A stretch of 64,000 bases of DNA from Saccostrea cucullata (taxonomy: Eukaryota): NCBI RefSeq assembly GCF_032062105.1, contig NW_026924640.1, positions 62,001-126,000 on the forward strand, read 5' to 3'. The notes beneath the pieces were generated by a model. That model saw only the letters and a program-made list of their open reading frames with translations, ran no database searches and was not told where the DNA came from. How positions within the stretch are numbered: position 1 is the first letter of the stretch; every line of letters starts with the position of its first letter. Both the position numbers and the translations under genes were made by a program. Shown here in pieces: positions 1-52,456 of this stretch.

Positions 1-2089
1 CGCATGTAATTAAACAAATGATTTTTCACTATTGTTGTACTAGTTTCTACCAGGTATTAATGTACATAATACTTATCCCAATATTTTTTCTGGACGGTCA
101 TGAATTCTTTCTAGTGACAGATAGTAAATTGCGTCATTTTACAATGGTCGAAGTTACCAACCAACGCCGTATTCATGATGTAGGGATAACTTGGGTCGAT
201 TTCTGTTCAGCTGATTTGCAATTTGATTTGTAAAACCAAATACTATAAATTAAAAGGGTATAAATTTCATTTTCAAAATAATACAATGTATTTGATAAAT
301 GTCACGCCAGGGATATCCATTGATTGTCTTTCCAGACAAGATTTTTCTGAGTTGATAGTTCGCCGTAGTGGTAAAAAATATACTCGTCTGTAATTTTTAG
401 GGTGATAAAGCCTTTTCTTTGATGTAATTTTCCAGTAACGATCTTAATAACGCTCATGGAATTAAAATTATTTTGGACACAATAGTGTAATGGCCTGGGG
501 TAGAATTTAATAAATTAGTTTATTTTTTTATGATTTAATTGTGTCAACATTTATTGGGAAAATTATCTGGGTTGATTTTATTATGCATTAATGACACTAA
601 TACATTTCAGTCCTTTGATTATTTACTCAACGTGATATTGTCTATTTTTAGCACATTTGACATACTTGTTGTTTGGATTTATACAGGAAATGCTATATTT
701 TATGAATTCATGTGCATACCTTCAGAATCTTTGCATGTTACTGTATTTTACTTGATTATTTATGAGTCAAATAAGCGCTTGACATAGCCATAATTGCACA
801 CGATTATTGGAGTCATGGAAGTTGTTTACATCCCGCCGACATCTTATTTGTATTAGCCAGAGTTTCGTATTTCAGCAAGATGTATTTTGTTATGCAATTC
901 GATGTTATAATTGCTTGTGAATATCCACAAAATTAATGTTTGAATATGTTTTACTAAGATTTATCAAGGGATTTTATGTTAAACGTGATTTTATGGTAGT
1001 TACACATTTTTACTATGACCAAGCTATTTGAATATCGTCTGCTATACGATTGCAGTTTTCTGTCATGAAATGCGCGTTTAATTCACATGAATTGTTTACT
1101 TACAGTAGATGAAAACATCTTTTGTAGTCCATATTTATTGTTTATTTTGTCTTTTCACATTTTAATTCCGTTTTATAGTTATTATCCTCATTGTACGGCA
1201 GCCTTGTTTGACACTGTTTGACAGATCTCTGTTTGTACGGCGCCGTACAGCGCTGCGATTGGTTGAGTGACACCGTACAGCTTTTTCACTGGTCAATTTG
1301 TATCACATGACTATTTCCGAAGGTTATAAATATAAGTGCCTCGCCAGTCTCTGGCAGATAAGTTGCACAAGCAACATCGCAGGATTGTAGCCTAAACCTA
1401 GGTGAGACAACTGTAAATTATCTCCCAACACACTGGACACCTGATGTTATATTTTTAGAGCTTTTTCATGCCAAATCAACTTTATTATCATTTTTTTATC
1501 CCTGAAAATACGGTTGACACTGTGGGACAAAATGAATATTAATTATCTATATGTTTCCAATATAGATGTTTGTTTACCTATTGTTATTTCCTGTTGAATG
1601 ATCAATTAATAAACCAATTATTAAACTGATACCAAGCCTTGTCCTTATTGAGAAATATGAAGCAAGAAATAAGGAGTGACCTTGAGAAGTATTGTGTGTA
1701 ATTATTTTGTATAGCCCCCATTCCAGGATGGCCATCCGTGGGGAGCTTACAATATATTAAAAATACGTTTTCTTTCTGCATAATATAAATGTACATACAC
1801 AATTATACGCCATAAACAAAATATATTAAGGTATTTATGAAAGGTCGAAATTAACCAGGTGGTCGAAATTACACCACCCTACCCTATACTTTCATGTTAA
1901 TTGGTTGTATCTGGTATTTCCTTGGGTGAAGAATTTCAATGTTACCCTCAACTGCAGGCGATGTTTTTTAATTATTATTTATCAGGCATTTATCACAAAA
2001 AGGCGGAGTGGAGATTATTGAACCTCCAATTAAATTACAGGTTTTGACTTGTTCCCTTCTCTCTCCCCTCCACAGGAAGAAATCAGACC

Positions 2090-2810
2090 TTTCAGTCAAA
2101 ACTGAATGACATATTTCAGCAACATTTCAGTGACACTTCAGTCACTGAATGGCACACACTTTTCAGTGACCTTTCAGACAACATTCAGTGACATTTCAGT
2201 TAGCATTTCAGTCAACATTCAGTTACCTTTACGTCGTCATTCAGTGACCCTTCAGCCAATATTCAGTGACCTTTCAGCCAACATTCAGTGACCCTTCAGC
2301 CAACTTTCAGTGACCTTTCAGCCAACTTTCAGTGACCCTTCAGCCAACTTTCAGTGACCTTTCAGCCAACTTTCAGTGACCTTTCAGCCAACTTTCAGTG
2401 ACCTTTCAGCCAACTTTCAGTGACCTTTCAGCCAACTTTCAGTGACCTTTCAGCCAACATTCAGTGACCTTTCAGCCAACATTCAGTGGCCTTTCCGCCA
2501 ACTTTCAGTGACCTTTCAGCCAACTTTCAGTGACCTTTCCGCCAACTTTCAGTGACCTTTCCACCAACTTTCAGTGACCTTTCAGCCAACTTTCAGTGAC
2601 CTTTCAGCCAACATTTAGTGACCTTTCAGTCTTGTTTTAGTAACCTTGCAGTCAAAATTCAGTGACCTTTTCAGCCAATGTTCAATAACCTTTCAGCTAC
2701 ATTTTGTCATTTTTCAATCCACATTAAGTGACATTTCAGTTCAACATTCAGCAAATTTTCAAAATTTTAGTTTCCTTTCTGGTCAAGTTTCCGTGACCCT
2801 TCAGTCATCA
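2090..2810 (+). repeat. Left subterminal tandem array, 22-bp unit TTTCAGTGACCTTTCAGCCAAC
   Basis: Visible tandem repeats made of two 11-mers, each containing TTCAG; most homogeneous at about 2240-2630. Confidence 0.95.
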
Positions 2811-3120
2811 AAAAAAATTCAAATATGGCTTGATACTTTTAGTCAATATATAATGTAGGTTAACTTGGTTTCAACTAAAATTAGACAAATCGCTTTACTC
2901 TTTATGCATATTTCAGGAACATTGCTGTCAATATTCCTTTTCCTTAATATTGTGATTGTCTACCAACACAATTAATTTCTATGTCATGACCTGTCTACAA
3001 GAGTGTTCATAGTCTTTGTTAAATAATATTTGTTAAATAATATTTTCTCGAGGTCAAGATTTACTTTTTGCTTAGAAACAAACTTCATGCTGTGTTTCTA
3101 TTTTTGAATGCTTTTTAATA

Positions 3121-3309
3121 CAGTGGAGCCTCAGTTATCCGGACGCTTTGATTCCTGAGTAATTTGTCCAGATATGTGAAGCATCTGGATGAACTGACTA
3201 ACCAGTTAAACTTGACAAAATAATGTTTTAAAAATTCTGTTCAAATGAAAAATCATTTGGAAACTGAAGCATTCCGATTTCTGGCGTCTGGATATCTGAA
3301 GGCACACTG
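3121..3309. mobile_element. Tc1/mariner(pogo)-type MITE nested in the CACTA element
   Basis: TA|CAGTGGAGCCTCAGTTATCCGGACG ... CGTCTGGATATCTGAAGGCACACTG|TA: imperfect TIRs with TA flanks. Confidence 0.65.
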
Positions 3310-4139
3310 TATAAAGCATATATAGCTCATAAAAAGTAATTTAAATAAGCATGTACATCTATCACAGCTTTTTTTATAATTCCGCTGAAGAAATGAAAGA
3401 AGGAAAACCTTTACACATTTACAACATTTTATTTCATTGAACCACCTGGTATATGTTTACTTAATATCATTGAAATATCAAACTATAAAATTACACATTA
3501 ACACAGCAAATATGTTGCATTCTACATAATGAAAAATACTAGTATTAGTCCATGATGATTCTGATTTACATTTTCTTCATTTTTTCTTTCGTTAATATGA
3601 CAAGGTCCCAAGACCATAAACTGATAACAGACTTATGTCAAAATTTAAAACTAGTACATGTATAACTTTTGAAAATAATTTGATAATATAAGGAAACAAA
3701 ATTTAAATCATAAATTTGATTTTTACTGTTATAAATAATTGCAAAATTTTAAGCTAATATGTCAACCAAACTCAAAATATGAAATATCAAAATTAGAAGT
3801 CTATTCTAAGTTTATGGTCTTAGGGTCAGTGCTGATATGCCTAAATCAAAATAGGAAATCTAATACAGATTAAGTCTGATATAAAACATAAATAATCTAC
3901 AACATGATTTAAAAAAAAAACAAGTACAAAAAACAGTGAATGTGGATAATTTGTCAAAAAGAATATTTTTAATAATAAAAAAAAGAGCTCTACACAAAAC
4001 AATTTAATATATAAATAACTAAAAAAGCACTACAAGGTAAATTTCAATTAATTTCAACAAGAATAACTTAGAACATGTATGATCAGTGAAAAAAAATCAA
4101 CTTAAAAATGATACAAAACTGAAATAGTTTTACAATAAG

Positions 4140-4862
4140 GTAGAATATCAAGCAAATTTGATTCTACTCCAACAGAACTGGCTTACATGTAATCTAAAAA
4201 AACCATCACTATCATGATAAAAATTTGGAGTAGCTCTACGACACGGTAGAACATCAAGCGAACTTGATTCTACTCCAACACAACTGGCTTACATGTAGTC
4301 TAAAAAATTTTTAAACTATCACTATCATGATAAAAATTTGGAGTAGCTCTACGACACGGTAGAACATCAAGCGAACTTGATTCTACTCCAACACAACTGG
4401 CTTACATGTAATCTAAAAAAAAAACTATCACTATCATGATAAAAATTTGGAGTAGCTCTACGACACGGTAGAACATCAAGCGAACTTGATTCTACTCCAA
4501 CAGAACTGGCTTACATGTAATCTAAAAAAAAAACTATCACTATCATGATAAAAATTTGGAGTAGCTCTACGACATGGTAGAACATCAAGCGAACTTGATT
4601 CTACTCCAACAGAACTGGCTCACATGTAATCTAAAAAAAATAACTAACACTATCATGATAAAAATTTGGAGTAGCTCTACGACACGGTAGAACATCAAGC
4701 GAACTTGATTCTACTCCAACAGAACTGGCTCACATGTAATCTAAAAAAAATAACTAACACTATCATGATAAAAATTTGGAGTAGCTCTACGACACGGTAG
4801 AACATCAAGCGAACTTGATTCTACTCCAACAGAACTGGCTCACATGTAATCTAAAAAAAAAA
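4140..4862. repeat. About 110-bp minisatellite, about 6.6 copies, downstream of the transposase stop
   Basis: Units start at 4140, 4246, 4359, 4468, 4577, 4687 and 4797; each has the internal hairpin GTAGAACATCAAG-CGAA-CTTGATTCTAC. Confidence 0.95.
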
Positions 4863-4955
4863 CAATGTGACAAAATATCAGCTAAACTTGGTTCTCCTCC
4901 CAATACTTTGTACCAAAACAATGCCATTTGTACCTGCACGATTTTATTGATACCA

Positions 4956-7900
4956 CTAATGATCTATGTCACTAAGGACTCTCCTAGGAATAGGGCATAT
5001 ACACATAAGATCCTTTCCCACACCAGTAAGTCCCTTCGAGAATCTACTATGAATCTTCTGAATGGGAAGAAAACAGTTATCGACTACGGATTCAAATTTG
5101 TTGCTGTGCCACATTTGAAGTGCATTTCCGTACTTGTATCTTTCTGAATATTCTTTGTACCATGAAACTTTTGCAAAAATATTTGTAATATGTTTTCCAT
5201 CAATCAAAGCTGTGTGAGAGAAATAAAAATCTACCCTACATGGACGTAGTTCTAGGGGAGAGCACTCAAAGTTGTTTTGTTCCGTTGTCCAATTAACTAA
5301 AACATCTGATGACCTTAATTTTCTGTTAATTTGTTTTGATCCAAAATTTTCACCTAATATTGTAATAAATCCATACTTCTTAATAATTTCACCCATATTA
5401 TCAATACTGAGAGACACAGAAGGAAACATTTTCCTGTATGAAGACATGAGATACACAATGTCTTCTTTGTCAAGTGCAGACAGTTTGTAAACCTTAGGTA
5501 ATGAAATAAAAGACATCAAGTCTTCATCAAAAAGGAAGTCAGCCCCAATTTCAGATGTTTTTAGAAACCTTACGATATCTGTTATCTTTAACTTTTCCCA
5601 CAAAGATTTACTGAAATTGAAGAATACTTCAGAAAAGTCAACCTCGGTAGTTGACAGCACGACATCTTTAAAGTTATCACAGAATTTTGAAGTCATGATT
5701 TTTCTCATGAATTGAATTTCTACTGCCTTATTGTTTGTATGAAAGTGTCCAAAAGCCCCATTATATCTCTCAAAAGAAAAACACCAGAAAACGTGCATGG
5801 GACCAAAATCAAACAAGCAATCTTTTAAATGATTATGTAGATGCATGTTACAAGTGACTTCTTTTAATGGGTAAATCTTTTCAAAAGTTTTGCAAAAGTC
5901 AAGTAACAATAGATCAGCTTTCTGAATATCAGTGAGAGTTAGAAATGGTTTGCATAGAAAACGACAACCTAATACAAATTTTTCCCAACATTTGTAATCT
6001 TTCTCTGGTAGTATTCCACACAAAGCATAGAGTGAAAATGTGGTTGTCCAGTTTTTCCATTCAGCTGCAGAAAATACACCATAATTTCCAGAAATATGTG
6101 TGGGAATTCTTCCTATGTCAGTTAAGGAATTTAGAGATTCTAGTCTTTCTTCTATAGTTTCCAAGTTTGACGGGGACAATTTGCCACTTTCAACCCAAAG
6201 TTTGAACATTTTTTTTGCCGTTCCAAGAAAGAGGTTGTGCATTGGGTCAATAACACAAAATTGTATTGCATCAAAATATTCCAACTCTATTAACACACTA
6301 TAAAAAGTCCCATATTCCCTAGAAAGTTTATCCGCCTGTGTCTTACTTGTTGCATTCTTAACCCTTCTGGCATGTAAATTATGAGTATATTTTGTTCTGG
6401 GTTTCCAATTCTGCCTGTCAAAACCTGAATAGTCTCTTTTTTCCCCAAAGTCACCAGGAAAAACTTTTAAACATTTATGGCAACCCAAACGAGCAGCGTG
6501 CGATTTAAATCCACAACACTTGCGAGCAGCTGGTATATCACAAGACACACAGAGCAGGGCTGCTCGAAAAACAGATGAAGAATTAAACAAACTTGTGTCT
6601 AACCTGACTCCTTTCCAAAGTGTTTGTAATTCATTAACAATTGGATCTAAAAAACTATTGATACTATGTGGCTCTTTTTTGAAAGCAGGTATTAATCCAG
6701 CAATTATTACATTTTCAGACTTAAATCTAATGCTTCTGGGTAAATTTAACATAACAAAATAAATAACTCCTACTGAATAATCATTCCTGTGTTTAAAGGG
6801 CTGAAACCAGTCTATATTCATCATTAATGCAACACTGTTTTTGTTAGAGAGAAAGGGCTCCCCATTGAAGGACAAAAAATTTTTCCATACTCGTCCATCA
6901 TATACATCTCTTAAAATTGTTAAATCCGAACCCCAGTCTTGCCAGTGTTGCCAAAATTGCCCAATTTCTTTCCTTTTCAAAATAGTTTCAATACCATTAA
7001 TTACACTGTTCAAACAGTAAACTTTCAATGGATAAAATTTTCGGATGTTACCCTTGCAAATAATCTGTTTAACTAAGGGAGAATTACATTTTACATATCT
7101 CCCTCTAACTTTTATTTCAGCAGAGCAGTTTTTTCCGTATCTTAATCCATCTTTCTCATATACACAGTCCAAAAAATCGTATAAACAAAAACATGAGGGA
7201 CACACAACAAATCGCTGAAATTCATCTCTATCTAGCTTCAATATTTTTCTGGCTAAATACAAACTTGGAGGAAATCCAATACAAAATTCTGTTAGCACTT
7301 GATTATTTATGTCTGCACCAAGCACTTGAAAAATTCTGAACAAAAATCGTAAAAGATACTCAACACCATTATCACTGATGTGGTGTATAACCTGAATGTA
7401 CAGAATAGCATACAGTACACAGAAAAGCAAACTGTTGACTTTCTTCATGGGGGATGGATGGACCTCAATTCCGAGTTCATTGTCCAAAAGGTTGGCTGGT
7501 ATGTCCCAGTGCTCTGGTTCATCCTCATTTTCTTCTTCACTATCCTCCATGTCTGACTGAAATTTTATGTACAATATTTTTAGACACAATTTTAAATAAA
7601 CCAGCAAACAGAGACCAGTCCAAAAACTATGGAACAGTCTGAAATGGCACTTTAGGCCAAATAAAAGTGAAAATGCATCACTGGAGTATATGATTTTCCA
7701 TTGGGAAATGAAAAGGATATATCTTATGAAATGAAATTGTAAACAATTAAATGAAAAATGCTCACTAGTAATACCCACCAGATGACTGAATATACTTGAA
7801 CATGTGTTGAATGTGCATGAATTTACTCAAGTTCAGTTACAGACAGTCATATAATTTAACTTTTATAAAATAACTGATTCTGATTGGATAAAAAATTCTT

Positions 7901-10900
7901 TTGATAACTGCATCAATTTAATGCATGGAATCTTGAGTTAGCTTGCACTAGGCAGTCGGAACTACTATGGCTGTTTTTACATGTACATGTATATTACACG
8001 ATTCCAGTTTTCTGTTTCAAGGAATAGATACTTCTACTTTAGGCCAAAATAAAATATACTCTTGTATCCTGTCCCCTGCCCAAAAAAATTAGGGTTGGTA
8101 GGTAGGGAAAAAATTTTATTTTGAGAAAAAATTTTATTTTCAAAATTTAATGAATGCAGAACATATAGCATGTAATAACTGTAATAACAAGAAAATGATA
8201 TGTTAACAGTTTCAAAGCAAGTTTGTTAATCAAGATTTATAAAGTAAAGGTAACCTGTACACTTGTGATGTATTAATTCTGTAAATATCATTGGTCAACT
8301 TCAGTATTTTAGAAAAATAGTTATCCAAAAAATGAAAATGTAATAAAAACTTTTAGGGTCGGAGGGTAAAATGTAGGGTAGGTCGGGTGACAGGAAACAG
8401 GAGTATTTTTTATTTTGGCCTTAATAGATATTTTCCAGAACTTTGAAACTCGTTCATTATGTTCTGGATATATTTACTACTTTCGTTTGTTTCTTTTTAA
8501 ATGATCCCCATTTGCTAAAGAAATCAAATTGTCTACATGACAACAATACAGTTATGGGATGGGAAAGAAGAAAAAAATCAGCATAGTTTTGTTAAATGTT
8601 TGACTTTGAGATTACTGGTATAAACAATTGAACTCTGAAGACATTATTTATGCTACAAAATCTGGGAAATGACTTGCAAGATAATCTCTTAATCCTTCAG
8701 ATTTTTCAGCATTGATGGATTGTGATACATATTTATATGTTTGATTTGAAATTCAGAGGAAAAAATATGCAAATGAACATGATGAAATCCTATGCACATT
8801 GACAATATTTTCCGTTGATTTTTATCTTTGATATATCGATCAAGCGAAAAAATATTACCCGGTACCTTAATTCATTTCTTTAATGAATTAGCAGGAAGTT
8901 GTATCATATTCAATAAAAACTAGAACTGTCCAATAGGGACAAATACCCTCTGTTGGGTTTTTCAGAGAAGGTGTCAAATCACAAATACTAAATGGATCTA
9001 GAGGTGTTCACAATTTTTTTTTACAAACATTTGCAATGAAATATAATTGCTTATTATGTATCTTAATGAATGAAACAAAGATGCAACCAAATGAAACATT
9101 AATAATAGTAATACATTGTAATTCCACTGCAACATTTTTTTTTATTTCTGTATTAAAAATTTTTTATTGCAATTATGTGTCATGACACTCTGCAAACTGA
9201 TTGTTGAAAAAATATCATATTATACCAGTGATTGGGATAAGCTAGGGAGTAAATGTGAATGACGCACCCCAAGTTAGTGTCAATGTGACATTTCAAAATT
9301 CAATGCGCCAAACAGACTTTTTCATGGGACATTTCCTAGTTACAAATTTGCAATTGATTACTTGCTGTTTGAATTTCAGTTGATTTACTTAATTGAAATT
9401 GTCAAATTATTGAATGATGACATTAAAAGATACAAAATTAGTATATTTGTATTCACAAGTGTCAGAAAATAAATAAACACTGCAATTTAATTTCAATTCT
9501 TTATTTTTTGTGTCTGATGTTTGACATCTTTAAAATGATTTAAAGCTTGGTTTAGATCTATACTGCTTCCTTCAAATTTATGTTAAATTTTCGTTTTGGT
9601 TTTTCCTCCGAGACTACATCATCAGTCTTACCGTCAGATTTATCTCGATTCGTTCTGTCAGCATGTTATACTTATTCCGAGTCATTTTGTAGCGATTTAC
9701 TTAAATTTGTTTGTTAGGATTGTGAGAATTAACAAAAGTCTGTCCTTTATCGGTACGAGGTATTTTCTTATGCAGCATGCTGCACTCCTGACACCAGTTT
9801 ATTTCGTGCCCGTTAGGAAATCAGAAAACATGTAACTGTTTGATTAGATACTGGAGAAACTAAAGTCATACAAACTCTTTAACTGAACGATGTAAAACAC
9901 TGTTTTTATTTCAAGCATAAGTTGTCAGCGATTGTTATGGGAAAGACTAGGAGCGCTTGGGGGAAAGCTCAAAGTTTAAAAGTATGCAGTGCATTACATG
10001 CGCCATGATGGCGCAGTGTTTTTAATTTTAATGTGACATTTTAAAATGTAATGCGACTATGGTGCAGGGTGCGTGCTTATCCCAATCACTGTTATACAAA
10101 ATCAACATTTTTGGAATGTTTTTTTATCAATACTTATTAACAAATTACACTAAAGATGTCTCACCTGATCACTTTCTTCTGAAACTTCTGCTGCCATTGA
10201 TGACGTAGGTGGCATGTCATCCAAGCAATCATCTGCATCTAAGGAAGATTGAATATAGAATTATTACACAATGCACTCCACTGTTGAATAAAAGGGTTAC
10301 TTTATCATGTTTATTAAACATCTAAAGTATTTGTAATTTAATCAATTACTTTTCATATCTACCCAATCACTGCCATCTAACATAAACAAAAATGTGTGTT
10401 TGGAACAAATTTGTAACAAATTGTTAATTTTTGCAAATTTTTTCCTTTAATTTTTTTAAATCATCAAATAATTAACATACTATCATGACTATACATTACA
10501 TCAAGTTAACATCATGTACTAGTAGTTTGAAAAGTGCTGTTTCTATATAATTTAAGTACCCCAATTGTAACTTTGGATAAATCACAATCCATGATTTGTT
10601 TTATAAATAAAATGAACTGTTTTTTTTAGGATTGTCCCAATGACTCTGGGAAAGGGGATTTCCCTCACCTATAATGACTTAACGAGACCGGGTCTACTTA
10701 AATTTACTCTAGGGTTTTTGGTAATTTTTTGTGAAATAGTTTTTACTTTTATGTTCATTGTTTTGAGAATATAACTCAAATGTTTTCCATCCGAATTCTT
10801 TAAGGGCCCACCTAATGCAGTTTAATTTGGTATTACACACAACCCCTTTTAGGATAGGAAAAACCAGACCCCATTATATGCTAGAAGGCTTGAAATTATA

Positions 10901-11610
10901 ATTAATAAAGTGCCGCGTCACAGCATGATATGCCCTTCAAAAAATTACAATTTTCTTGAATAGTTTAGGTGCAAGGAAATCATGTCAACTTTGATTCTAA
11001 GATTTTGATGATTTTTCCATTCCTTAAGATATTTATCCATCCCCTGTGATGTAGGCAGTAATTATAATAAATATTACATCACTGATAGATTTCTATGCTG
11101 GCTGTGTTAGACCTTGTCAAATGCCCATCATATTAAACAATACTTGATAAGTTTGATAATCCTAGGTCTAATAGTATTAAAGTTATGAGCCGGAAACAAA
11201 AGCGCTAACAGACAGACGGACGGAAACGAAGCCTTTAACATAACATGTCCCGTTTTAAGATGGGCATATAATAAAGTAAAAGTAATGAACAAAATAATGG
11301 GGAAATAACCCAAAATAATGACATTTTTAAAAATTTTAAAACAAATTTTGAAAAATAACTTGTTTTGGTTATTCACATACACTATATAATATATCAGTGA
11401 CATTTATATATACATACCGGGATGGTCTGAAGCTCTCCCAAAGTCTTCAATCAAGTCTTTAAACCTCTTGTCGGACATCTCTCGAACTGCAGCCTCCCCA
11501 TGGTCGAGCCAGGAGTTTGTGCTTGGATCAAAGAAACTTGCATAGTGTCGATAGTAGCTACTTCGGGGAAAATCCTCATGGCATATTGGACATCTCTTCC
11601 TTTTTGGCAT
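4956..11610 (-). CDS. CACTA/EnSpm-type (Tnp2/Transposase_21-like) DDE transposase, 3 exons, about 955 aa
   Basis: Exons 11610-11418 (MPKRKRCPICH...RH, C2H-type finger), 10238-10165 and 7556-4956, with GT-AG introns in compatible phases (1, 0). Motifs: NIDWFQPF, LNLPRSIRF, SCDIPAARKCCGF..H...GCHKC, DPMHNLFLG, NMHLHNHL, FGP..FWCFSFERYNG. No internal stops. Confidence 0.9.
8042..8420. mobile_element. Kolobok-like MITE in transposase intron 2
   Basis: GGCCAAAATAAAATATACTC ... GAGTATTTTTTATTTTGGCC, flanked by TTTA / TTAA. Confidence 0.65.
9226..10091. mobile_element. Non-autonomous TIR element (hAT-like ends, 6-bp TSD) in transposase intron 2
   Basis: Perfect 17-bp TIR CAGTGATTGGGATAAGC; TTATAC on both sides. 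Confidence 0.75.
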
Positions 11611-13822
11611 GACCTAGTGATTAAATAAAGTGCTGATATAAAACTGCAAAATGGTCAAACAATTACTTTCAAGGCTTTTTGTTATTATATTTGTCAGTGA
11701 AATTTGACACATACCAGTAAAATATTCACTTTCCATTGAATAGATTTTACTAGCCAAAAAAACTACATTTTCTTCATTTTTAATCTTAAACCACCACTTT
11801 TAGGCATCATGACATCAATCAAGTGTTTGAACTTATTACCATGGTACTCTCTTTTGTTTTTAGTGAATAAAAAAGCCCATGGTACATAATATGAGTAGTC
11901 AAATAGACAAATAACAGTCAGGACAGGGGTGTGACTTAAATCCATTACTTTTTAGAATAATGATGAAAAACAGTCATATCTATTTTGAAATTTATTTCCG
12001 AAATTAATTATGACTGTATTTCATCCTTCCTTTTTTAAATCAAATTCTTAAGTCTGGGTGCTCTTAATTATCTGATAAGTTTTAAGGGAAGCACTAACTA
12101 ATAATCTGGTTTTAATTACTTGTCAAGATATTTCTCTACACAAAGGTCTATGGCAGAATAGTGTACCATATCAAATTACTGTAAATAGGTTGGAAAAATT
12201 GAATTGACTTGGGAATGAAAATAATTTTAATAATTCACATTTTAAATATACCATGTGTACTTAGAAAAGATAATTATCAATAATTTTTTATAAAAAAAAT
12301 GGATTTCAATCAAATCCCTGACTGAATAATTTTATAAAATTTGCAACTTGATGTGTCAATACATAATATCACAAGTACCTTGCAGTTATTTAACTTATTA
12401 CTGCTCTTTTGTGGGTGAATCATGAAAGCTCTAAATCTTGCGATTACTGGGGATCATGGCATATTGTTTACAGTAGTGACAATCAAATGATTGAAATAAT
12501 TTTATGCAAAAAGTAGAAAGTATTGAACTCCAAATAATAGATTTTCAAATAAGGAAAGTTTAGAATATTTTATCTGCTTTAATGTGTGACAATTTTCAAT
12601 AAAAATTTAATCAGAAGAGCCTGCTTACTTAAAAATATTGTTAAAAATTGTATTATTTTTGGATAAGCTCCTCTCAAAAACTAATAAGGCTGTTTCAGCA
12701 ATTGTATAGCAAGACATTCAACCAGGATTTTATACTTATCCGTTGCTAATGATCTACAATGATCTTCAAGTCTACAATGATGGATCTTACATTGTATTCA
12801 AGAACTCATTTGCCCCAATCCAATAGTCCTTTCCTACCTATACAGTTATTATGTAATTGCGATATGAAGTTTTAAAACACTTAATGTAAGTTTAGATTAC
12901 GGTAATACTCAATCTTATTTTTAACCCAAGGGCATATAACTGTTCCTGCATATCAGAATATTCAGTGAGGCCTGAATTAAAAAAAAATTAACAACTTCTA
13001 AATGTCTACAACCTTGTATCAAGGCAATTCATGATGCTGACTTGTGATGTATAGTCCAATCCACAATTTGCAAAAGTTAGTGAGGTCAACCAATAGGTCA
13101 AAAGGTAAAGAAAAATCATTTCTCCTCCTTATCAATTATGCTATACACCAAATATACCAGAGTTATTTCTCATTGGCTGCCATATTCAGTCAGGGATGTG
13201 ACTGAAATCCATCATTTTTAAAATGAAAATAATTGTCATTTCTTGTAAGTATATAATGTACACTTTATCTTATTTTTGTAAATATGACCTCTTTCAATCA
13301 TATTTCCATTCCCAAGTCAATTTTCCCAACCCATCTACTACAGTAATAAGATATAGTACACTATCCTGTCATAGGCCCTTGTGTAGAGAAACATCTTGAC
13401 AAGTAATTGAAACCAAAATAATTTAGTGCGCCCCATAAAACCAACGAGATAACGAGTGCGTCCAGACCTAACAATTTGATAAACAAGAGATGTTTGTAAA
13501 ACACATATACCCCACTCCCCCCAAATTTGAATTTTAATTACTAAGTCCAAAAGGGCATAACTCTGTCTAAAATGGTGCGATCCTACCCAAAACATTTCCT
13601 GACCAAGATATTCAGCTGAAAAATCTGTATACTAAATTTCATTTCAACATGTTCAATATGTGCAACCTCTGAGAAAAAAATGAACAGAAACTGCAAATAA
13701 ATGGAATTTTTTTAAGTGGGGGGTATTGTTTTTTTTTTAAATAAATTGTTAAAACTTCTTCTATTTCATAATTTTTATTCCATAAATATTTCCCCACAAA
13801 TATTTCTGCTACACTCTTTTAC

Positions 13823-13994
13823 CAGGTTGGGACCACTCGCCCAAATGGGATATAATAGGCCGTTTGGGATAGAATATCCCAAATGGGCTATAAATTTACA
13901 GTGCAAAAAATAAAAAAAAATTTATTTTGGATAATATATCATATATATAATATATAGCCTATTATATCCCGTTTGGACGAGTGGTCCCAACCTG
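13823..13994. mobile_element. Short MITE (hAT-like ends, 5-bp TSD)
   Basis: About 38-bp TIR CAGGTTGGGACCACTCGCCCAAATGGGATATAATAGGC; TTTAC on both sides. Confidence 0.8.
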
Positions 13995-14514
13995 TTTACA
14001 GCTGTCTTATAGGCCTATTTGGTAGGACAAAGAGCGAAAATTACCCGGTGCCAGACAACTCACCGAAAGACAGGTCACCGACAAAAGTGAAATTCGCGGA
14101 ATAGACAATTCACCGACAATAGTGTCGGTGAGTAGAAATTCACGGACAATGTTTTATAATAATTGTTAGATGAATAGATGTCGTGTTAAGTATTCAGATA
14201 TAATAAACATAATCAAAGATGCATTAAAAAACATGTATTTCTTTGTCCATCTACTTCAAATCTTTGTTCAGTGGAGCTTAAAAGTAGAGTTGAGCTTTTT
14301 TGATCATCCATTATCTGCAGTCTGTCTGTCTGTGTGTCCTTATTTAAACTTTTTTTTTACATTCTTGCTCCTTCCGTTCCATTTTTTAAAAAAAAGTTGG
14401 CACAAAGCTTTCCTTGGTGAAGCTTTTCTTACTATACTCCCTACTTGAAAAAGTGGGCAGTTATATGATGATTAGGATGTGATCCATTTATCTATCTGCT
14501 CAGCTGTTCCTCTA

Positions 14515-15080
14515 TTTGTTGTCCCCCGCTTGAAAAGTGGGGGATATTAATTTGGGTCTGTCGGTCCATCTGTCCGTCCGTCTTTCTGTCTGTCTGTAAC
14601 GCTTCCGTTTCCACAAGATATCTCAAGAACCCTTTGAGCATTTGCAATGAAATTTAGCATAGCAACTCCCTGTGGCCTAAGGAAGACCCCTATTGATTTT
14701 GAGGTCAAAAGGTCAAAGATCAAGGTCATTAATAAGCAAATTCTGTCTGTTATAACACTTTCGTTTCCACACGATATCTCTCGAACCATTTGAGCTATTG
14801 CAATGAAATTTAATATAACAACTACCTGTGGCCTAAGGAAGACCCCTTTTGATTTTGAGGTCAAAAGGTCAAAGTTCAAGATCGTAAATCTATACATTCT
14901 GTCTGTGTGTAATACTATCATTTCCGGGCGATATTTCAAGAAGATTTTGAGCTTATGTAATGTAATTTTATACCAAAACTCCCTAGGACCTCTCTCAACC
15001 CTCTCAAAGTGCCCCACTCCGTTTGTTTTACTAGTATTTATCGTATTGCCTGTCGCTATTTTTAGCACAGGGGCATGCGG
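14515..15080 (+). mobile_element. Non-autonomous Helentron/HINE-like element
   Basis: Starts with T-run plus CCCCCGCTTGAAAAGTGGGGG hairpin, then a (GTCC/GTCT)n microsatellite and internal repeats with GAGGTCAAAAGGTCAA. Similar remnants at about 10900-11280, 13480-13720, 14270-14460 and 28300-28590. Confidence 0.6.
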
Positions 15081-15436
15081 AGAGTTATTGCGTATAAAAC
15101 ATGTTCTTGGAGGGCTTAATGTTCTTATTTCAGCAAAACTCGTTTAATACGAACACAGATATTGCTAATGTACGACTATAACGAAGTCATCTTGAATCCT
15201 CAGCTGTATAAATTTAATGACTTTTCTATACGGTTATAACAAATAACGGTTATAGCGAAGTAATTTCATAGGTCCCTGTGACTTCGTTATAACAGAGTTT
15301 TATTGTACATCTATTAGAACTGTTAAAAGCTAAATAAATCAAACACCGTGAATTGTGTAAAATTTTGATAATACCAAACATGAATATATACATGTATGTT
15401 ACTTCACTTCTGCATATACTTCATTTCATTAAAAGC

Positions 15437-15508
15437 GGTTCCGTGGTCTAGTGGTATGTTTCCCGCTTCACATGTGAGAGGTCCCGGGATCGAATCTCGG
15501 ACAGATCC
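15437..15508 (+). pseudogene. Degenerate tRNA-Val(CAC)-like sequence or tRNA-derived repeat
   Basis: GGTTCCGTGGTCTAGTGGT...CTTCACAT...GGTCCCGGGATCGAATCTCGG; A and B boxes recognisable, but the TTC is changed to ATC and the stems are imperfect. Confidence 0.5.
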
Positions 15509-16072
15509 TTTTATTTTTTTTTTACTTTTCTTTTTTTTTAATGATAGTATTCAACATGTGAAAAGAATAATTTATGAGGTTATAAAATCATCATTACAGT
15601 GTGATAAATATTGATTATAAAAAGAATCTTCTATGTATACACATAATAAAGAATAAGCAATCAAATCTTTATACGCATATTGACATACATGTATTTTATT
15701 TGCTTCAGTATACATGCAAACATTTAATAATTCTACAAATTCAGTCAGGGGATCCGACTTTTTCCCTAAGCGGGGGACACAAATTCTCTGAATTATCTTG
15801 TTTTACATTATTTTTATCAGCAACTTCCCATACACCACTTAATGAAATTTGATGAGATTTTCTGGAATCTTTTTTAAAATTGTGAACATTCTATTTCACA
15901 TTTTGATTGGACACATATTTTTTGGGTTTCCCATAGCAAAACATGGTTACTGCCATTATATTCATATTGGAGATGGGGTATCATTTAGTGTTCTCATTGA
16001 TCATAAAACCTTCTTTTTTTTTATTTTATTGAGCATCAACTGTTACCTTTAATTTTTCATTCCTTTTTGTAG

Positions 16073-17185
16073 GTGCCTGCAAGACATACTTCATATCACT
16101 ACGGGATTCCGAAAGAAGAAAACAGAACGGGCGAGACAAAGACCATGCCACAAGAAGCAGACGTCAAAGCAGAAGGCGAGAAGTATGTATATAAACTTCC
16201 TTCAAATTTGTCATTATTAAGTCATGAAAAAAGTTTAATGGCAGGTGTACAGGTACAAAATAAAAAATCTCTGTAACAGCATTAATGTTTATAGTTTGAT
16301 TTTACAATGAAAATCTTTATAATTTTTTTTCCTTATTTATGAAAGGGAAGTTCATCAGTTTATAGAAGAATACTGTAAATAACATATTTTTGTTGGATTA
16401 AATTTCTGAGGGTTTAGAAAAAAAATTATTGGACCTGGTATGTGGGGACATGATTTTGTGTTTGGAAAATGTTTTGAAATACAGATAAAATTATATATTT
16501 CTTGGTGTCTTGTAAATTCATGGTGTCTCCCCATAACTGGTAAACAGCAAGAATTAAACCCCCACAAAAATAAGTGACATCACAGTAACCATTAACAAGG
16601 CTGGGGGGTGGCAGCTATTTTAAGACCATTTCTATCTCCTTTAAAAGAAGAGCTCCATATAAAAATATACAAAAATGATCAAATTTTAAAACTAAAATGT
16701 ATGATTTTTTTTCTTTGCCAAATGATAGTTGACAGCTTAAGATACCGTATCAAAAAAATAAGTTAAATCTGGTGGTTAATTTGTGGTTAATTTGTTGACC
16801 CCGATCCTCCTTAAAGAAGATAAATTTATCACAGATTTTCTTTACTGTTTTACAGAGAGCAAGAAAACTAAAGAGGACTCTGACTAACATCAGCAGAGAC
16901 AAACTTGGGGACTTTGACAGGTCAAAGCTGATGGAGGTGATGACCCCAGAGTACCTGTCCTCTGAAGAGTCCGAAGAAGATGAAGGAGGGAATTTTCTAC
17001 ACTTTAAAGTCCGCCGGCTGCCATGGCAGAGGGAAACCTTCCAGAGGCTAAAAGACAAACTGGAAGAGGCCCACAAAGAGAGCCTGACCCCCCAGCACAA
17101 GAGACAGCTGAAGAAGAGGGTGATTGATGAGGACTTCTCTTCAAGAACAGCCCCAGATGACTGCCCTAAGTTTGTGAAGGACTGA
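16073..17185 (+). CDS. Transposon second gene, C14orf93-like protein (3' exons only)
   Basis: Exons 16073-16182 and 16856-17185 (AG/GT, in frame) give ACKTYFISLR...RRQSRRRERARKLKR...YLSSEES...VRRLPWQ...LKDKLE...KRV....SSRTAP. The motif order resembles the C14orf93 C-terminus as recalled (GAC..YF, MSDEED, SDRLP). Upstream exons not found. Confidence 0.65.
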
Positions 17186-18199
17186 AGAGATGAAGTGAAC
17201 TCAAGGACAGCCCGAGGAGACAATCATGCACAAATAAAAGATTGACTATTGTATATTATGTAGTCTGTAGGAATTAATTTATTTCATATTTATTGTTATC
17301 ATTTTTGTTAATTTATTTTTTAGAAAAGATGCAATCTTACAATAGTAGCTGCCTGTGCAATTTTAATAGTAGCTCATCGTATTTATTAATATATATGTTT
17401 AAGAATTATAAACTGGTAATGAATACTTTTTTTCACAATATTTTTTAACTGTGATAATTATTTTCTGACACAAATCAGACAAATACATATTATTTAAAGC
17501 AATATGAGCTGCAACTTTAAAATTTACCATTGGTAAATTATCATCAACTATTTCAAGGATAAAGAGAAAGAGCATTTTATGAACTTCTGTCATTCATATT
17601 TGTAGAAGAAAACTATTTACAAGCTCGTAATAATGCAAATTGACATTATTGTCATTCTGTAATCTATAGTTTTCTTAAATAATACTACATATTTGTTTGC
17701 TACAGAGGTCTCTTTTGGAACAGATTCATACTTTATTGTAGACTTATTGATCTGAAAGATTAAATTACTTAAAAATTATCATGACACATTTCAATCATAG
17801 TAAAATATATTTTTTTTTAAAATGCAGCCCATATTGCTCTAATGTGAAATCTATAAATATTTGTTTTTGCCAATGTATTTAAAGAAACATGTTTATGATT
17901 CCTTTTCTCATCAATTTTCATTTTTGAATTAATCCATTGAAGAGAAGTTTGTATTGCTTGAGTTCAAAAAAAAAAAGCATTATATTTTGTGTCAAGAGCA
18001 ATCAATGTTTTCATATGATTGTACCATTTTGTTATTTATTTTCAAAATGCTTTCACATTAAAAAAAAAAATTATTACTTTATTAAGTTGTTTTATTTTTT
18101 ATGGAAATTCTCTTGATGATGACAAGGATATTGTTTTAGGTCATTGAAATATGTCTGAAAAATAAAAGAAGTGTGACTAATTAATAAAAAAAAAATTAG

Positions 18200-19080
18200 A
18201 CTGAATAGTAATTGAAATATGGCTGAAGGGTAACTTAAATGTGGCTAAAAGGTCAGAGATATATAGCTGAATGGTAACTGAAATATGGTTGAATGGTCAC
18301 TGAAAGGTCCCTAAAATATGGCTGAAAGGTCACTGAAATAAAGCTGAATGGTAACTGAAAAATGGCTGAAAGGTCACAGAAACAAAGCTGAATGGTAACT
18401 GAAAAATGGCTGAAGGGTCACTGAAATATAGCTGAAAGGTCACTGAAACATGGCTGAAAGGTCACTGAAATATGGCTGAATAGTCACTGAAACATGGCTG
18501 AAAGGTCACAGAAACAAAGCTGAATGGTAACTGAAAAATGGCTGAAAGGTCACTGAAATATTGCTGAAATGTCACTGAAACATGGCTGAAAGGTCACTGA
18601 AATATGTCTGAAAGGTCACTGAAACATGGCTGAAAGGTCACTGAAATATGGCTGAATGGTCACTGAAACATGGCTGAAAGGTCACTGATATATAGCTGAA
18701 AGGTCACTGAAATATGGCTGAAAGGTCACTGAAACATGGCTGAAAGGTCACTGAAACATGGCTGAAAGGTCACTGAAATATGGCTGAATAGTCACTGAAA
18801 CATGGCTGAAAGGTCACTGAAATATTGCTGAAATGTCACTGAAACATGGCTGAAAGGTCACTGAAATATGGCTGAAAGGTCACTGAAACATGGCTGAAAG
18901 GTCACTGAAGTATGGCTGAAGGGTCACTGAAAGATGGCTGAAAGGTCACTGAAATGTATGTGCCATTCAGTTGAATGAATGGTCACTGAATTGTAACGGA
19001 ATTGTAATGGAAAAGATCTTTATCAGTGATCATTCCTCCACCATTCCGCTTCCATTCAGTCACCTTTAAGTCGACTGAAT
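18200..19080 (-). repeat. Right subterminal tandem array, 22-bp unit GGCTGAAAGGTCACTGAAACAT (inverted relative to left array)
   Basis: Its reverse complement ATGTTTCAGTGACCTTTCAGCC shares 19 of 22 nt with the left unit. Confidence 0.95.
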
Positions 19081-19209
19081 GGTTAGATTTCATCCTGTGC
19101 TCGAACTTTGAGAAAACGATTGTATAAGCGTTTAGTTGTTGACATTTTACTTTTGAATTTCCTCAAAACAGCGAACGTTATCTCCATTTCTAAACTGTCA
19201 TTTTTTAAG

Positions 19210-21513
19210 GCTGCTGTTCCGACGAATAAATACACGCAGTTCATCGATGGAGCAACAAAGCTTATAAATGAGACAGACCCTGGCTGGGCTCTTCTGGTAG
19301 AGGTCATTCTAACGTTCATGATAACTTTCACTGTTTTACTCACAGCGTTTGATAAAAAGAAGAAAAATATGTCACCTCTTGCTATTGGATTCTCGGTCGT
19401 CGCATGTGCAATGTCAGGGTAAGATTTCAAGACAAATTATTTACTGGAAATAAATAACTTTCATATATTGCTGCATAAGTAAGGGAGGTTGACGATTGAA
19501 AAATAAAAGTGATTACATTGATTATGAAGTTTGTAACCTGTTGTAACTTATAGATTCGTTCACGTCTTTTTCTTGTTAGATATAAAAGTGTGAAACATAT
19601 GTATCAGACTCTGTGGTATCTTTGATATAGCTCACTGGGAAATATTGTGTCGACATATGAATGGAAGTAATTATTGTTGATTGATATTATGTCTTCGATA
19701 TATCTAATTGTCGAGTTGAAAGCCAAAACCATTGTTTTCTTTTCCCCGTGTTTAAAATTTTAAATGAATTCTGCTTAATATGTGTAACCCGGGGTCTTAG
19801 GGCGGTTCGAATTTAGTATGGGTGGAAAGAACGACTCCGGATAAAGTTTACACCATTTATTTGGATATAGAGATGAAATGACATATGATGACCCTGTAAC
19901 ATAATAAAAGCTTTATAAACAACGTTGTAAGATAGATAACCTCTAAATATAGATACAGTGTGCAAAAGTTAAAAATATTCACACGAGTGATATGCTTATC
20001 TCAGAAAATAACTTACAGTAGCTGAAATATATTAATATTCAACAAATTCATGATTCAAATAATTTTTCTAAATAATGAAAATAATAAATTAAATAATCCT
20101 AATAACTTGATAAAAATATCTACAAATTTCACTCTGCCACATATGAATACAAAAAAGTCTGCAAATAACAGGTGCAATTGGTACCTATGGAAATTCCAAA
20201 TGATTGTTCGATACAAAAACCTAGTCTCCAAAACCAAATAGACATTGTCATCAAAAACTCAAACATTTTTTTTAATATCGACAAGTATAAGAGTACTTGT
20301 GTGTACAATCAGAATGCTTTTAACAAAGTAATTTTGCAAATGACAAATGACAAGATAAGTTAATAAGACTAGAACATTTTTTGTCTACTATTTACATGTT
20401 CACTATTGCACGATCTTATCAGGTTTTATCTAATCCTTTAAATCGCTTTATGAAAGTCAAAAGTGTTTGTTAATGACATCAAGTTATAAGGTTTTTTCAG
20501 GATTGCGTACTTCGTCAATGCTCAGATATTTAAAGAAATGCATTAAATCAAACTGAACTTAAGATGACATGCTTTGAAATATAATTTACAAATTTACAAC
20601 AGGACACCATATACTGGTGGATATATGAATCCGGCTGTAAGTTTAGGACCGGCTGCATCCTACTCAAGATACATGTACATAGATATCGATGTTTTGGAGC
20701 ATCATTATGTCTATTGGGTGGGACCCAAAGCAGGGGCATTGGCCGCAGCTATAATATACAGGTTGGAGATTATTTGCATTGCCGATAAAATAAAACATAT
20801 GTACTGTACACATATGGTTTATTAAACGTTGTTAGTTATACACTTTGTAATGAAAAATATAGAGATAAAGAGCAGTATTTAAGCGTAGAAGTCCATAAAG
20901 CAAAACAAAGTAGGAGCAGAGCAAACACGGTCCTCCAAAACATCAGAAGTGGAATCAGATGCCATGGAGGAGTGAGCATTACCCGCCGACAGGTCATACC
21001 CGCGGTGTGCTCCTTGTCATGATGGGGAAATAACGGAAGAATTCGTCGTCAATTCAGGGTGTAAATATTGGACTAACAATTAGTATGAAAAAGGTCGGTC
21101 AGATTTTGACTCAATGATAAATCGATTTGCTGAAAAGGTCATCGCAAGTAATGAAGTTTCATTGTTTACTTAAGTTTGGCAGTGTAATTTGAGTCGACAA
21201 AATATAAGGTAATTGAAAGAATCTATTTTTTATTAAAAAAATTATAAGCCTTTTTAATATTAATCAGGATTATTTAAGGTATGACAAATTGATAAATTTC
21301 TATTTTATGTAGGTATAAATTTTACATTTAATTGAATCTTTACAAACTTTACAAGGATTGAAGAAAATTAATGGGATACTTTATAAGTATGAAAATAATA
21401 AATCATTCTTTCATTTCAGTGTTTTGTTTTCAAAGAGAAGGACACCAGATTTTATGAACTTTACACATTCTGAGGGACACTCAACACCCAGCAATAACAT
21501 TCCCATACAATGA
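19210..21513 (+). CDS. AQP8: Aquaporin-8-like copy 1 (exons 3-5; exons 1-2 presumably upstream of the window)
   Basis: Exons 19210-19418, 20603-20761 and 21420-21513; MIP motifs EVILTF, PLAIGFSV, GGYMNPAVSLGP, HYVYWVGP. Confidence 0.85.
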
Positions 21514-47848: not shown

Positions 47849-48195
47849 TATATCTATGTGAAAGAGATTTAAGGTCAGATGATACAAACAATTTTTTTCA
47901 TTGGAAGATATTTAATATCATGTCACGAGTTAAGAAAAGTGGATAAGAGAAGGATATGGAAATAACGAACAGTATTCAATATCAATTCTTAGAATTTTTT
48001 ATCTTAAGAACTGGAAAATTAAATAGACTTGGAAAATATTAGTAATACATGTATATCAATAAAAAAAACAAATATAGACACATCACACTGGTAAAGGTTT
48101 ACAGGTGAAAACAAATTTCAGAATATGTTACATTGATGCTAAAAGTTTAATATAAACTTAGGAAAATTATACCAAGCCGGGTGAATTTTTTTAGG

Positions 48196-48198
<3 letters not shown>

Positions 48199-48282
<84 letters not shown>
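48199..48282. repeat. (TA)n microsatellite
   Basis: Direct. Confidence 0.98.
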
Positions 48283-48284
<2 letters not shown>

Positions 48285-49120
48285 AAAATGAAAAGAATTG
48301 GCACAGTGTCCGGTAAATAATGTTAGAAAAAAATGACAAGGCAACAATGTTAGTAAAACGTTAATGTGAGGATTTCTTTCCTATGTAAGTTGTCCCATTT
48401 TTTCTGACTAAGTTTCCATAAGGATTGAAAGACTTCCTGGGTCCCTGTCCAGGATGTCTGTTTCTTAATGCTTGTTTTTCTGTTGAATATCCTCCCTGAG
48501 GTTGTTGGAATTTGTTCTTGTTATACATCATTGTCGAATGATTATCATTTCCCCGATGCAGCATCTTCCCTGTTTTTCTCCCATTCTTTGAAGCAGGGAT
48601 TTGAAACGAATTTCTGTTAATTTGCTGAGATGTTTCCTTGTAACTAGATGTATTTTTTGGTCTACTGGCTGCTTCAGCATAGCTCAGTTCCTGTTGTCTT
48701 GAGTTTACAACAAAAAAGAAGAGGGAGAAAACAGTTCCAGCAACTAACTCAAGCCAACAGGAATTGAGCTATGCTGAAGCAGCCAGTAGACCAAAAAATA
48801 CATCTAGTTACAAGGAAACATCTCAGCAAATTAACAGAAATTCGTTTCAAATCCCTGCTTCAAAGAATGGGAGAAAAACAGGGAAGATGCTGCATCGGGG
48901 AAATGATAATCATTCGACAATGATGTATAACAAGAACAAATTCCAACAACCTCAGGGAGGATATTCAACAGAAAAACAAGCATTAAGAAACAGACATCCT
49001 GGACAGGGACCCAGGAAGTCTTTCAATCCTTATGGAAACTTAGTCAGAAAAAATGGGACAACTTACATAGGAAAGAAATCCTCACATTAACGTTTTACTA
49101 ACATTGTTGCCTTGTCATTT

Positions 49121-49128
<8 letters not shown>
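48283..49128. mobile_element. Palindromic RT-less insertion between (TA)n tracts (putative PLE-mobilised non-autonomous element)
   Basis: Inverted arms 48323-48705 and 48746-49128, nearly identical, each with the same ORF 3' end (SYAEAA...KKSSH*); a 40-nt tail on the left arm only. Confidence 0.7.

Positions 49129-49209
<81 letters not shown>
49128..49209. repeat. (TA)n microsatellite
   Basis: Direct. Confidence 0.98.
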
Positions 49210-49213
<4 letters not shown>

Positions 49214-49287
49214 AGTCCATGAATTCACAGTGGTCGGTATAGTAGTAAAGTAAAAAATAATTAAAAAGAAAACACGAAGACAACAAA

Positions 49288-49331
49288 GTAAAGCATTAGC
49301 GCTTTCATTTAAAAATCTTCAGATGCTTTAC
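49288..49331 (-). ncRNA. Minimal type I hammerhead ribozyme motif (family A, inverted arm)
   Basis: Reverse complement of 51913-51956. Confidence 0.7.
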
Positions 49332-49858
49332 AATAAAGTTTTTTAATTGTCACATAGTAACGCCTTCTATGACGTCATAATTAGCGGAACGTAATACAGT
49401 CTCTATGACGTAATTCTCCCAGCAGTTATTACGGGAAAGTCAAACAATGCTATTTAGCTTTGGTTTTAAAGTAGTAATAAAGTGTTTTTTTTTTCTCTTC
49501 GTTGAATTTGGTTTCCAGACATCTTATAGAACGGGAAAACGGTAAATTGTCTCTTCCCGCATATATCTAAATGTTCACTAAGTTTAATTTGTCTGTATTG
49601 CGGGTTATTAATATGTTGTTTGTGGACTCTTACCCGAGCTCTTAGTGTAGTGCTAGTTTCTCCAATATAAAATTCGTTATAACCCGGGCATGATATGACA
49701 TAGATTAGGTTCTTAGTTTCACAGGACATGTCAGCATTTACTGTGAAATTTCGGCCCCGGAAGTCGTAGCTGGTTCCCTCCAAAATATAGTCGCAGGTAC
49801 CGCATCTCGGGTCATTGCATTTTGTTACTGAACAATTCTTTTCCTTGAAACTGGATGT

Positions 49859-51805: not shown

Positions 51806-51912
51806 TTTCCCGTAATAACTGCTGGGAGAATTACGTCATAGAGACTGTATTACGTTCCGCTAATTATGACGTCATAGAAGGCGTTACTATGTGACAGTTA
51901 AAAAACTTTATT

Positions 51913-51956
51913 GTAAAGCATCTGAAGATTTTTAAATGAAAGCGCTAATGCTTTAC
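51913..51956 (+). ncRNA. Minimal type I hammerhead ribozyme motif (family A)
   Basis: GTAAAGCAT-CTGAAGA-TTTTTAAAT-GAAA-GCGC-TA-ATGCTTTAC: 9-bp stem I, core boxes, weak stem II, palindromic stem III. Confidence 0.7.
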
Positions 51957-52415: not shown

Positions 52416-52456
52416 GGAAGTGGTGGGTATCCATGTGAAAGTGAATTTCTTTGTGC

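Follow-up and report, generated by a model that had tools for sequence, protein, structure and literature searches.

A probable EnSpm/CACTA-type transposon with an intact spliced transposase gene in an aquaporin intron of the oyster Saccostrea cucullata

In a stretch of 64,000 nucleotides of Saccostrea cucullata (NCBI RefSeq assembly GCF_032062105.1, contig NW_026924640.1, positions 62,001 to 126,000 of the forward strand; hereafter the window), one copy of a tandemly duplicated aquaporin gene has a second intron of more than 19 kb, which raises the question of what fills this intron and how it came to be there. An earlier reading made from the sequence alone (the original prediction) proposed a complete animal CACTA-type transposon. 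We conclude that window positions 2071-19099, a span of 17,029 bp, very probably are one cut-and-paste transposon of the EnSpm/CACTA type, whose transposase gene is spliced and intact and whose second gene is truncated. It likely entered intron 2 of a single aquaporin copy recently, once the tandem duplications had taken place. The element is complete at its ends and in its transposase and incomplete in its gene content, as the second gene lacks its 5' exons; the proposed completeness therefore holds for the former only.

The marks of the CMC group to which EnSpm/CACTA elements belong, namely the transposase motifs and the CAC...GTG ends, were taken from PMC12730594 and PMC6004678. Reading both boundaries placed CTC followed by CACAGGAAGAAATCAGACC at 2071, and TTTCATCCTGTG followed by CTC at 19099, in agreement with the ends and target-site duplication originally proposed. 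The element begins with CACAGGAAGAAATC and ends with TTTCATCCTGTG, with 23 of 27 bases agreeing between the left and right ends. These termini read CACAG...CTGTG, in other words short terminal inverted repeats (TIRs) of the CAC...GTG type that marks EnSpm/CACTA elements; literal CACTA...TAGTG termini of the plant type are absent from the ends. Two further EnSpm/CACTA marks are the 3-bp duplication on both sides and arrays of a 22-bp unit inside both ends, inverted relative to one another, whose core motif TTCAGTSRC occurs 22 times in the left array and 25 times in the right array, compared with at most one occurrence in the interior and in the remaining window. Together with the Tnp2 transposase described below, these features bear out the original assignment to the CACTA type.

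2068..2070, unstranded: left target-site duplication CTC (boundary read; the empty sites carry a single CTC)
2071..2097, plus strand: left TIR, CACAGGAAG... (23 of 27 bases as in the right end)
2086..2810, plus strand: left subterminal array, built of TTCAG-rich 22-bp (2 x 11) units (22 TTCAGTSRC motifs, against 0 in the interior)
18127..18953, minus strand: right subterminal array, inverted relative to the left array (repeat and motif count)
19073..19099, minus strand: right TIR, ...TTTCATCCTGTG (end comparison and end search)
19100..19102, unstranded: right target-site duplication CTC (boundary read)

The transposase gene lies on the minus strand. Joining 11610-11418, 10238-10165 and 7556-4959 gives 954 amino acids without a stop, with canonical GT..AG ends at both junctions (11418/10238 and 10165/7556), so that the open spliced transposase of the original prediction stands.

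4959..7556, minus strand: transposase coding exon 3, with the Tnp2 domain and candidate residues D338/D429/E685, C448xxC451 and H661xxxH665 (Pfam, alignment, RNA cover in run X2)
10165..10238, minus strand: coding exon 2 of the transposase, 74 nt (open frame between GT..AG ends; its junction is not directly among the RNA joints listed)
11418..11616, minus strand: transposase exon with the ATG at 11610, an N-terminal CxxC...H motif and an acceptor upstream (an X2 RNA contig fits exactly)

The protein matches Pfam Transposase_21 (Tnp2), one of the marks of EnSpm/CACTA (CMC), with an E value of 5e-17 and 62.3 bits against a cut-off of 28.6. In an alignment of 52 sequences (the window protein and 51 of 120 listed homologues), D338, D429, E685, C448xxC451 and H661xxxH665 were invariant in all 52. 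D338/D429/E685 are the candidate catalytic triad, picked among the invariant acidic residues on the basis of CACTA motifs and not of a structure. The nearest named homologue, from a rock oyster, is 60% identical. A match to DUF1258, which we assume to be linked to the Mirage branch of CMC, fell below its cut-off (22.3 versus 33.1). Both here and in a relative on contig C5039, a splice acceptor precedes the exon with the ATG, from which we deduce that an additional 5' transposase exon exists. Compared with a broken copy on C18244, nonsynonymous/synonymous divergence (dN/dS) was 0.020/0.045; dS was saturated against more distant relatives. The invariant acidic, CxxC and HxxxH residues correspond to the CMC motifs given in PMC12730594.

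Part of the transposase region occurs in 20 of the 24 listed sequencing runs, which come from 11 studies, and five runs were compared in detail. In RNA run X2, exon 3 had a depth of 10-13, compared with 0-1.6 in unique non-coding bins; one contig spans exactly 11418-11616, bounded by an acceptor (11617) and a donor (11417), and another stops at the exon 3 acceptor. Of the two RNA runs, X2 thus supports spliced expression of the transposase, with transcripts of copies that share 99% identity with the window copy.

We then turn to the host gene. The element lies in intron 2, 107 bp upstream of aquaporin exon 3, and the five aquaporin exons (the first two precede the window) give an intact open protein with two NPA motifs.

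19210..19418, plus strand: host aquaporin exon 3 (Pfam MIP; exon 4 is 20603-20761, exon 5 starts at 21420)

Intron 2 measures 19,652 bp with the element, confirming the predicted enlargement beyond 19 kb, and 2,620 bp without it; in four paralogues it measures 188, 171, 1,271 and 2,407 bp. A genome search with the right flank found eight further aquaporin copies (nine matches in all). The element is absent from all eight paralogous introns, and removal of the element and one CTC leaves a sequence collinear with all of them, with an exact 29-base match across the rebuilt empty junction in four (L118-L121, outside the window, some of which may be mutual haplotigs). As all eight paralogues are empty, the insertion followed the aquaporin duplications, as originally proposed. 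The same proposal had equated the element-free sequence with the introns of two paralogues in the window, of which the one near 43045 fits and the one near 33330 fits less well. The search with the right flank found no allelic haplotig of the insertion site above 87% identity. At least five similar aquaporin copies lie in tandem on the window's contig (window 19210-45500, and G000:C6777 36.7-52.7 kb), and four further matches are spread over three other contigs. Separately, most of the remaining 2.6 kb of intron 2 is made up of a second insertion of 2.3 kb with 21-bp TIRs (window 1-1883 and 421 bp upstream; L092).

The original prediction, in calling the element complete, had overlooked a second gene on the opposite (plus) strand, of which this copy keeps only the last two exons.

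16073..16182, plus strand: penultimate exon of the second gene; the exons upstream are absent from this copy (homology, profile, local alignment)
16856..17185, plus strand: last exon of the second gene, 109 amino acids and stop, with AATAAA near 17234 (homology)

Both exons are open and encode the C-terminal 146 amino acids of a protein (240 amino acids long in the full homologue P0002); an intact second gene (open reading frame 2, ORF2), as expected of a full-length two-gene CACTA element, was not found in the element. The last exon has 44 matches in the genome, of which four lie in related elements, 1.5-1.9 kb inward from the right end, and a relative of about 33 kb in C5039 carries five second-gene exons in a back-to-back arrangement with a transposase of 75% identity; we therefore consider that the second gene belongs to the element. 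This relative (G000:C5039:45400-78763, with C11624 and C9991), whose transposase is open, is the best candidate for a complete two-gene element; TTA flanks it on the left, as in C11624, and the matching TTA on the right is found in C9991, which is 97% identical and likely a haplotig. For exons 1-3, local alignment of the element scored 29-35, compared with 94-136 in C5039; a profile search found them in C5039 only; and a genome search with P0132 gave no match in the window's contig. By these three methods, the 5' exons were not found inside the element.

Homologues of the second protein number 138 at E 0.001 among cluster representatives; ten of these were looked up, the named ones being oyster, mussel, amphioxus, sea star and flatworm proteins. 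In a confident structural model of P0002 (predicted local distance difference test, pLDDT, 92.9), three helices lie at 25-108. The exons missing here code for most of this predicted three-helix domain, which is lost from the window copy. Fold comparison of P0002 gave weak matches (best Z 6.7), several of them to nucleic-acid-binding domains, Foldseek with the same model gave no match at E 0.001, and comparison with solved structures by sequence gave none below E 0.05. We infer that the second gene encodes an accessory (ORF2/TnpA-like) factor with a predicted DNA-binding role. Since the two orphan exons have the same orientation as the aquaporin and end near AATAAA, they could also be predicted to trap aquaporin splicing, in which case splicing from aquaporin exon 2 into them would give truncated products of 165 or 233 amino acids. 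A single insertion has thus lengthened the intron from 2.6 kb to 19.7 kb, and its orphan exons might truncate one aquaporin copy. Five exon 2-3 spliced reads in the poly-A run X22 match an aquaporin paralogue and not the copy with the element.

From established CACTA biology, a DDE transposase would cut at the CAC...GTG ends and leave the 3-bp duplication, and a protein encoded by the element would bind to the 22-bp arrays. Most likely, as other CACTA elements do (PMC4158355), a copy was excised by the transposase and inserted at CTC in the aquaporin intron. Given that the predicted DNA-binding half of the second protein is lost, the window copy likely moved with this factor supplied in trans, or without it. 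For an autonomous, active element, the signs are indirect, namely the apparently polymorphic site and transposase RNA in one of the two runs. It is possible, if doubtful, that the family is autonomous with the transposase alone and that the second gene is dispensable and decaying. This would fit the presence of copies with the same interior pieces in two other samples, the transposase RNA in X2 next to almost no second-gene RNA (depth 0.57), the lack of the 5' exons within 22 kb also in C241 (a relative of the element at 81-85% identity), and the typical fusion of the DNA-binding domain to the transposase in animals, as described in a preprint (10.64898/2026.08.24.746577). However, the contigs of runs X1 and X3 leave 13.4-15.9 kb unbridged, so that sister copies may keep the missing exons, and the remaining exons are open in a gene conserved across related elements and invertebrate phyla. 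Moreover, transposition of maize En/Spm needs both of its proteins (TnpD and TnpA). Autonomy by the transposase alone would touch the mechanism only, and is compatible with a single, recently inserted transposon. The practical value of this animal CACTA element is that it is well bounded, that its transposase family is intact and transcribed, and that it appears to have moved recently. It could serve to examine whether a second protein is required in animals, as it is for maize En/Spm; the window copy, without the front of the second gene, and the relative that keeps it offer a comparison.

The second gene also gave a weak lead to a vertebrate gene. Language-model look-alikes of its protein include a chordate cluster at 0.83 (99% DUF4616) and a fungal cluster at 0.89 (17% DUF4616), both sub-threshold; DUF4616 matched one of 60 homologues, below threshold at E 0.009 and in a region shared with the query, and a profile search of the genome with DUF4616 had no match anywhere, controls included. 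DUF4616 is presumably vertebrate C14orf93, whose likeness to the second gene is therefore a lead with sub-threshold scores. A full-text literature search pairing C14orf93 with transposons or domestication found no paper. Should this lead be borne out, a vertebrate gene about which little is understood would have come from a transposon. We consider it improbable that the second gene represents an undescribed invertebrate-wide CACTA accessory family that was the source of a domesticated C14orf93 (DUF4616), and that the oyster family is currently active, jumping and crossing oyster lineages although the second gene has lost its DNA-binding half.

For the age of the insertion, we compared the runs over the element and its flanks. 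Two of eight X1 contigs and the single X14 contig begin at 19100 and run on into the window's left flank, which they match at 29 and 30 of 30 bases, compared with 26 of 30 for the best paralogue; the right sides of these empty-site contigs are 93-96% identical to the window flank, versus 80-86% for paralogues. The filled junction was not bridged by any listed piece (17 of 22 listed) or by a loose contig end. The right end recurs in X1 in a different flank, identical over 140 of 140 bases, and in X3 two right ends lie in flanks other than that of the window. As none of its flank contigs reaches 99% identity, X1 is not the source animal, yet its element pieces are 99-100% identical. Between the window and X1, the element has 29 differences in about 5,180 bases over eight listed pieces (0.6%), and the aquaporin flank 37 in about 600 bases (6%); for X3, the values are 1.8% in the listed pieces and about 8% in the flank, where the X3 pieces may be paralogues. 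Because empty-site contigs occur in two independent runs and near-identical ends in other flanks, we consider the insertion recent, as the original prediction had it, and the recent mobility of the element to be supported. As an observation in its own right, the element is 3-10 times more conserved between samples or organism labels (X1, X3) than the single host locus compared, which might point to spread between close oyster lineages. A distant horizontal transfer to organism B was rejected: the high-copy repeats are deeply covered in the runs of B as well, so that B is the same or a close species.

That the insertion is instead older and fixed in the lineage, with the empty-site contigs coming from a close unassembled aquaporin paralogue and the window copy perhaps being the donor of the copies elsewhere, appears to us highly improbable. 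The 4-7% difference of the empty-site contigs from the flank, the dynamic aquaporin array with its nine matches, and nested repeats of which some are only 75-82% like their nearest copies would agree with it. On the other hand, X1 combines its near-identical element pieces with neither a flank contig of that identity nor a listed filled junction, the loose contig ends fit the window copy better than any of the eight paralogues, and the target-site duplication and the reading frame are intact.

To place the element among its relatives, both ends were searched in the genome, scoring the best 40 of 522 and the best 40 of 256 candidates, so that copy counts are lower bounds. The left terminus recurs in 30 of 30 loci retrieved by the left-end search, and the 60 loci retrieved with both ends contain 19 distinct two-ended elements, mostly of a non-autonomous family of about 1.5 kb. 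A 3-bp duplication flanks 15 of these 19, compared with 10 of 342 mismatched end pairings used as a control. The non-autonomous family (loci L008-L030 and L039-L060), with its related ends and 3-bp duplications, appears young. The transposase protein had 104 matches, with the best four others full-length or near-full at 72-98% identity. Close copies of the large element in the neighbourhoods retrieved are all truncated, to 317 bp (C2657), 1.5 kb (C6158, C261), 4.7 kb at about 97% identity (C18244, C20380) and a 1.2-kb right piece (C11830). Searches with interior sequence (best 40 candidates each) returned dispersed repeats only.

Several results weigh against a single, recently inserted element. 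The end searches (best 40 candidates each) and 13 neighbourhoods contained no second full-length copy in the assembly; these searches uphold the recurrence of the termini, with 19 two-ended relatives, and not that of the whole element. Transposase reads are nearly lacking in X22, the poly-A run (depth 0-0.24). For the two predicted junctions, 11418/10238 and 10165/7556, X2 contigs do end at the splice sites, but neither junction is among the 15 of 497 RNA joints listed, and the transposase RNA derives from the 99%-identical copies under another organism label and not from the window copy. The identity of the empty-site contigs to the flank is low for alleles, and a young paralogue missing from the assembly is possible. 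Finally, neither the second gene nor P0002 (0 matches) has a Pfam family match, and with weak fold matches the role of the second gene is inferred from position. The missing second full-length copy, and the location of the close left and right pieces on separate contigs, could also suggest that the two ends come from different elements with CTC matching by chance; this is extremely improbable and already largely refuted, as cutting out the whole interval gives back the paralogous intron to the base and matches the empty-site contigs, and in related elements, too, the left array is followed by the transposase, the second gene and the right array.

[quoted passage not shown] Indeed, the interior is rich in repeats, with X1 depth above 100 in 16 of 30 bins between 4900 and 18100, versus about 15 in unique parts.

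3121..3309, unstranded: nested MITE with CAGTG...CACTG ends and TA flanks (inside a block common to C18244/C20380 and C6158/C261)
4087..4866, plus strand: tandem array of seven units of about 110 bp, located downstream of the transposase stop (also present in C18244, with gaps in copy number)
8040..8421, unstranded: nested MITE in a transposase intron (possibly absent from the X3 copy, as an X3 contig fits only from 8426)
9500..10092, unstranded: part of a dispersed repeat nested in a transposase intron (recurs in 39 other places at 83-95%, best 40 scored)
12358..12840, unstranded: old nested dispersed repeat (39 other places at 75-82%, best 40 scored)
14515..15805, unstranded: nested high-copy repeat, interrupted at about 15131-15307 (absent from relative C241)
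16592..16814, unstranded: MITE nested in the second gene's last intron (lacking in C241 along the collinear stretch)

Between 11.2 and 13.4 kb, contigs of X1 and X3 cross the borders of several repeats, and near 16.0 kb an X1 contig does too; together with the MITE block common to other sites, this means that nested repeats travel with the element. The sharing of nested MITEs by other copies is nevertheless partial: the MITE at 3121-3309 is found in copies at two other sites, whereas the X3 contig suggests that the one at 8040-8421 is absent from X3's copy. C241, an older relative, lacks both the 16592-16814 MITE and the 14515-15805 repeat. At least one nested repeat is younger than a sister copy. 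The interior would thus have been built stepwise by accumulation of nested repeats, most of them now passive passengers. The cargo proposal holds in that several repeats are shared at other sites and in other samples; they are passive nested insertions and not captured genes. No captured host genes were seen in the element; a tRNA-Val(CAC) predicted by ARAGORN at 15437-15509 falls within the high-copy repeat at 14515-15805, other copies of which cover the same stretch.

Plant CACTA elements have inverted subterminal arrays like those described here. The plant En/Spm type (maize TnpD and TnpA, grass CACTA ORF2; PMC4158355) shares with the oyster element two genes between short TIRs, a 3-bp duplication and a DDE transposase, but the oyster element has CACAG instead of CACTA ends and carries its two genes back to back on opposite strands. 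The second protein has no Pfam match, no sequence link between it and plant TnpA was seen, and its gene is 5'-truncated here. Animal CACTA elements with CAC ends have been described (PMC6004678, PMC4298943), EnSpm makes up 0.09-0.47% of five oyster genomes (PMC9679248), and EnSpm repeats have been counted in a clam genome (PMC8905726). Animal CACTA elements are therefore not unusual, and the element, as a further member of a class already known in animals and oysters, is not surprising in itself; its family may already carry a Repbase name. ENS1_Cis of Ciona, Spongebob_HMa of Hydra and the oyster EnSpm repeats have a Tnp2-type transposase, as here, and ENS1_Cis also has 5'-CAC...GTG-3' ends (PMC6004678), while ENS1_Cis and Spongebob have 2-bp instead of 3-bp duplications (PMC6004678, PMC4298943). 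The element described here differs from these three in its length of 17 kb, its separate second gene on the opposite strand and the evidence of recent mobility. Fungal EnSpm elements of the CMCT clade share CAC..GTG ends and 3-bp duplications (PMC12730594); in the present element, from an animal host, no TET/JBP gene was seen. The preprint cited above describes the DNA-binding domain as separate in plants and also notes other accessory proteins, so that the separate accessory gene here is a mild exception to the fused animal arrangement.

Elsewhere in the window, positions 48134-56994 contain large near-perfect inverted repeats, with arms of 1194, 715, 386 and 351 bp at 98-100% identity, for which an assembly artefact is possible. 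Both arms, near 52916-53014 and 56496-56609, encode a stretch resembling the GIY-YIG nuclease motif, presumably as in Penelope-like retroelements. At 61941-63300 lies a tandem array of 171-bp units with about 95% identity.

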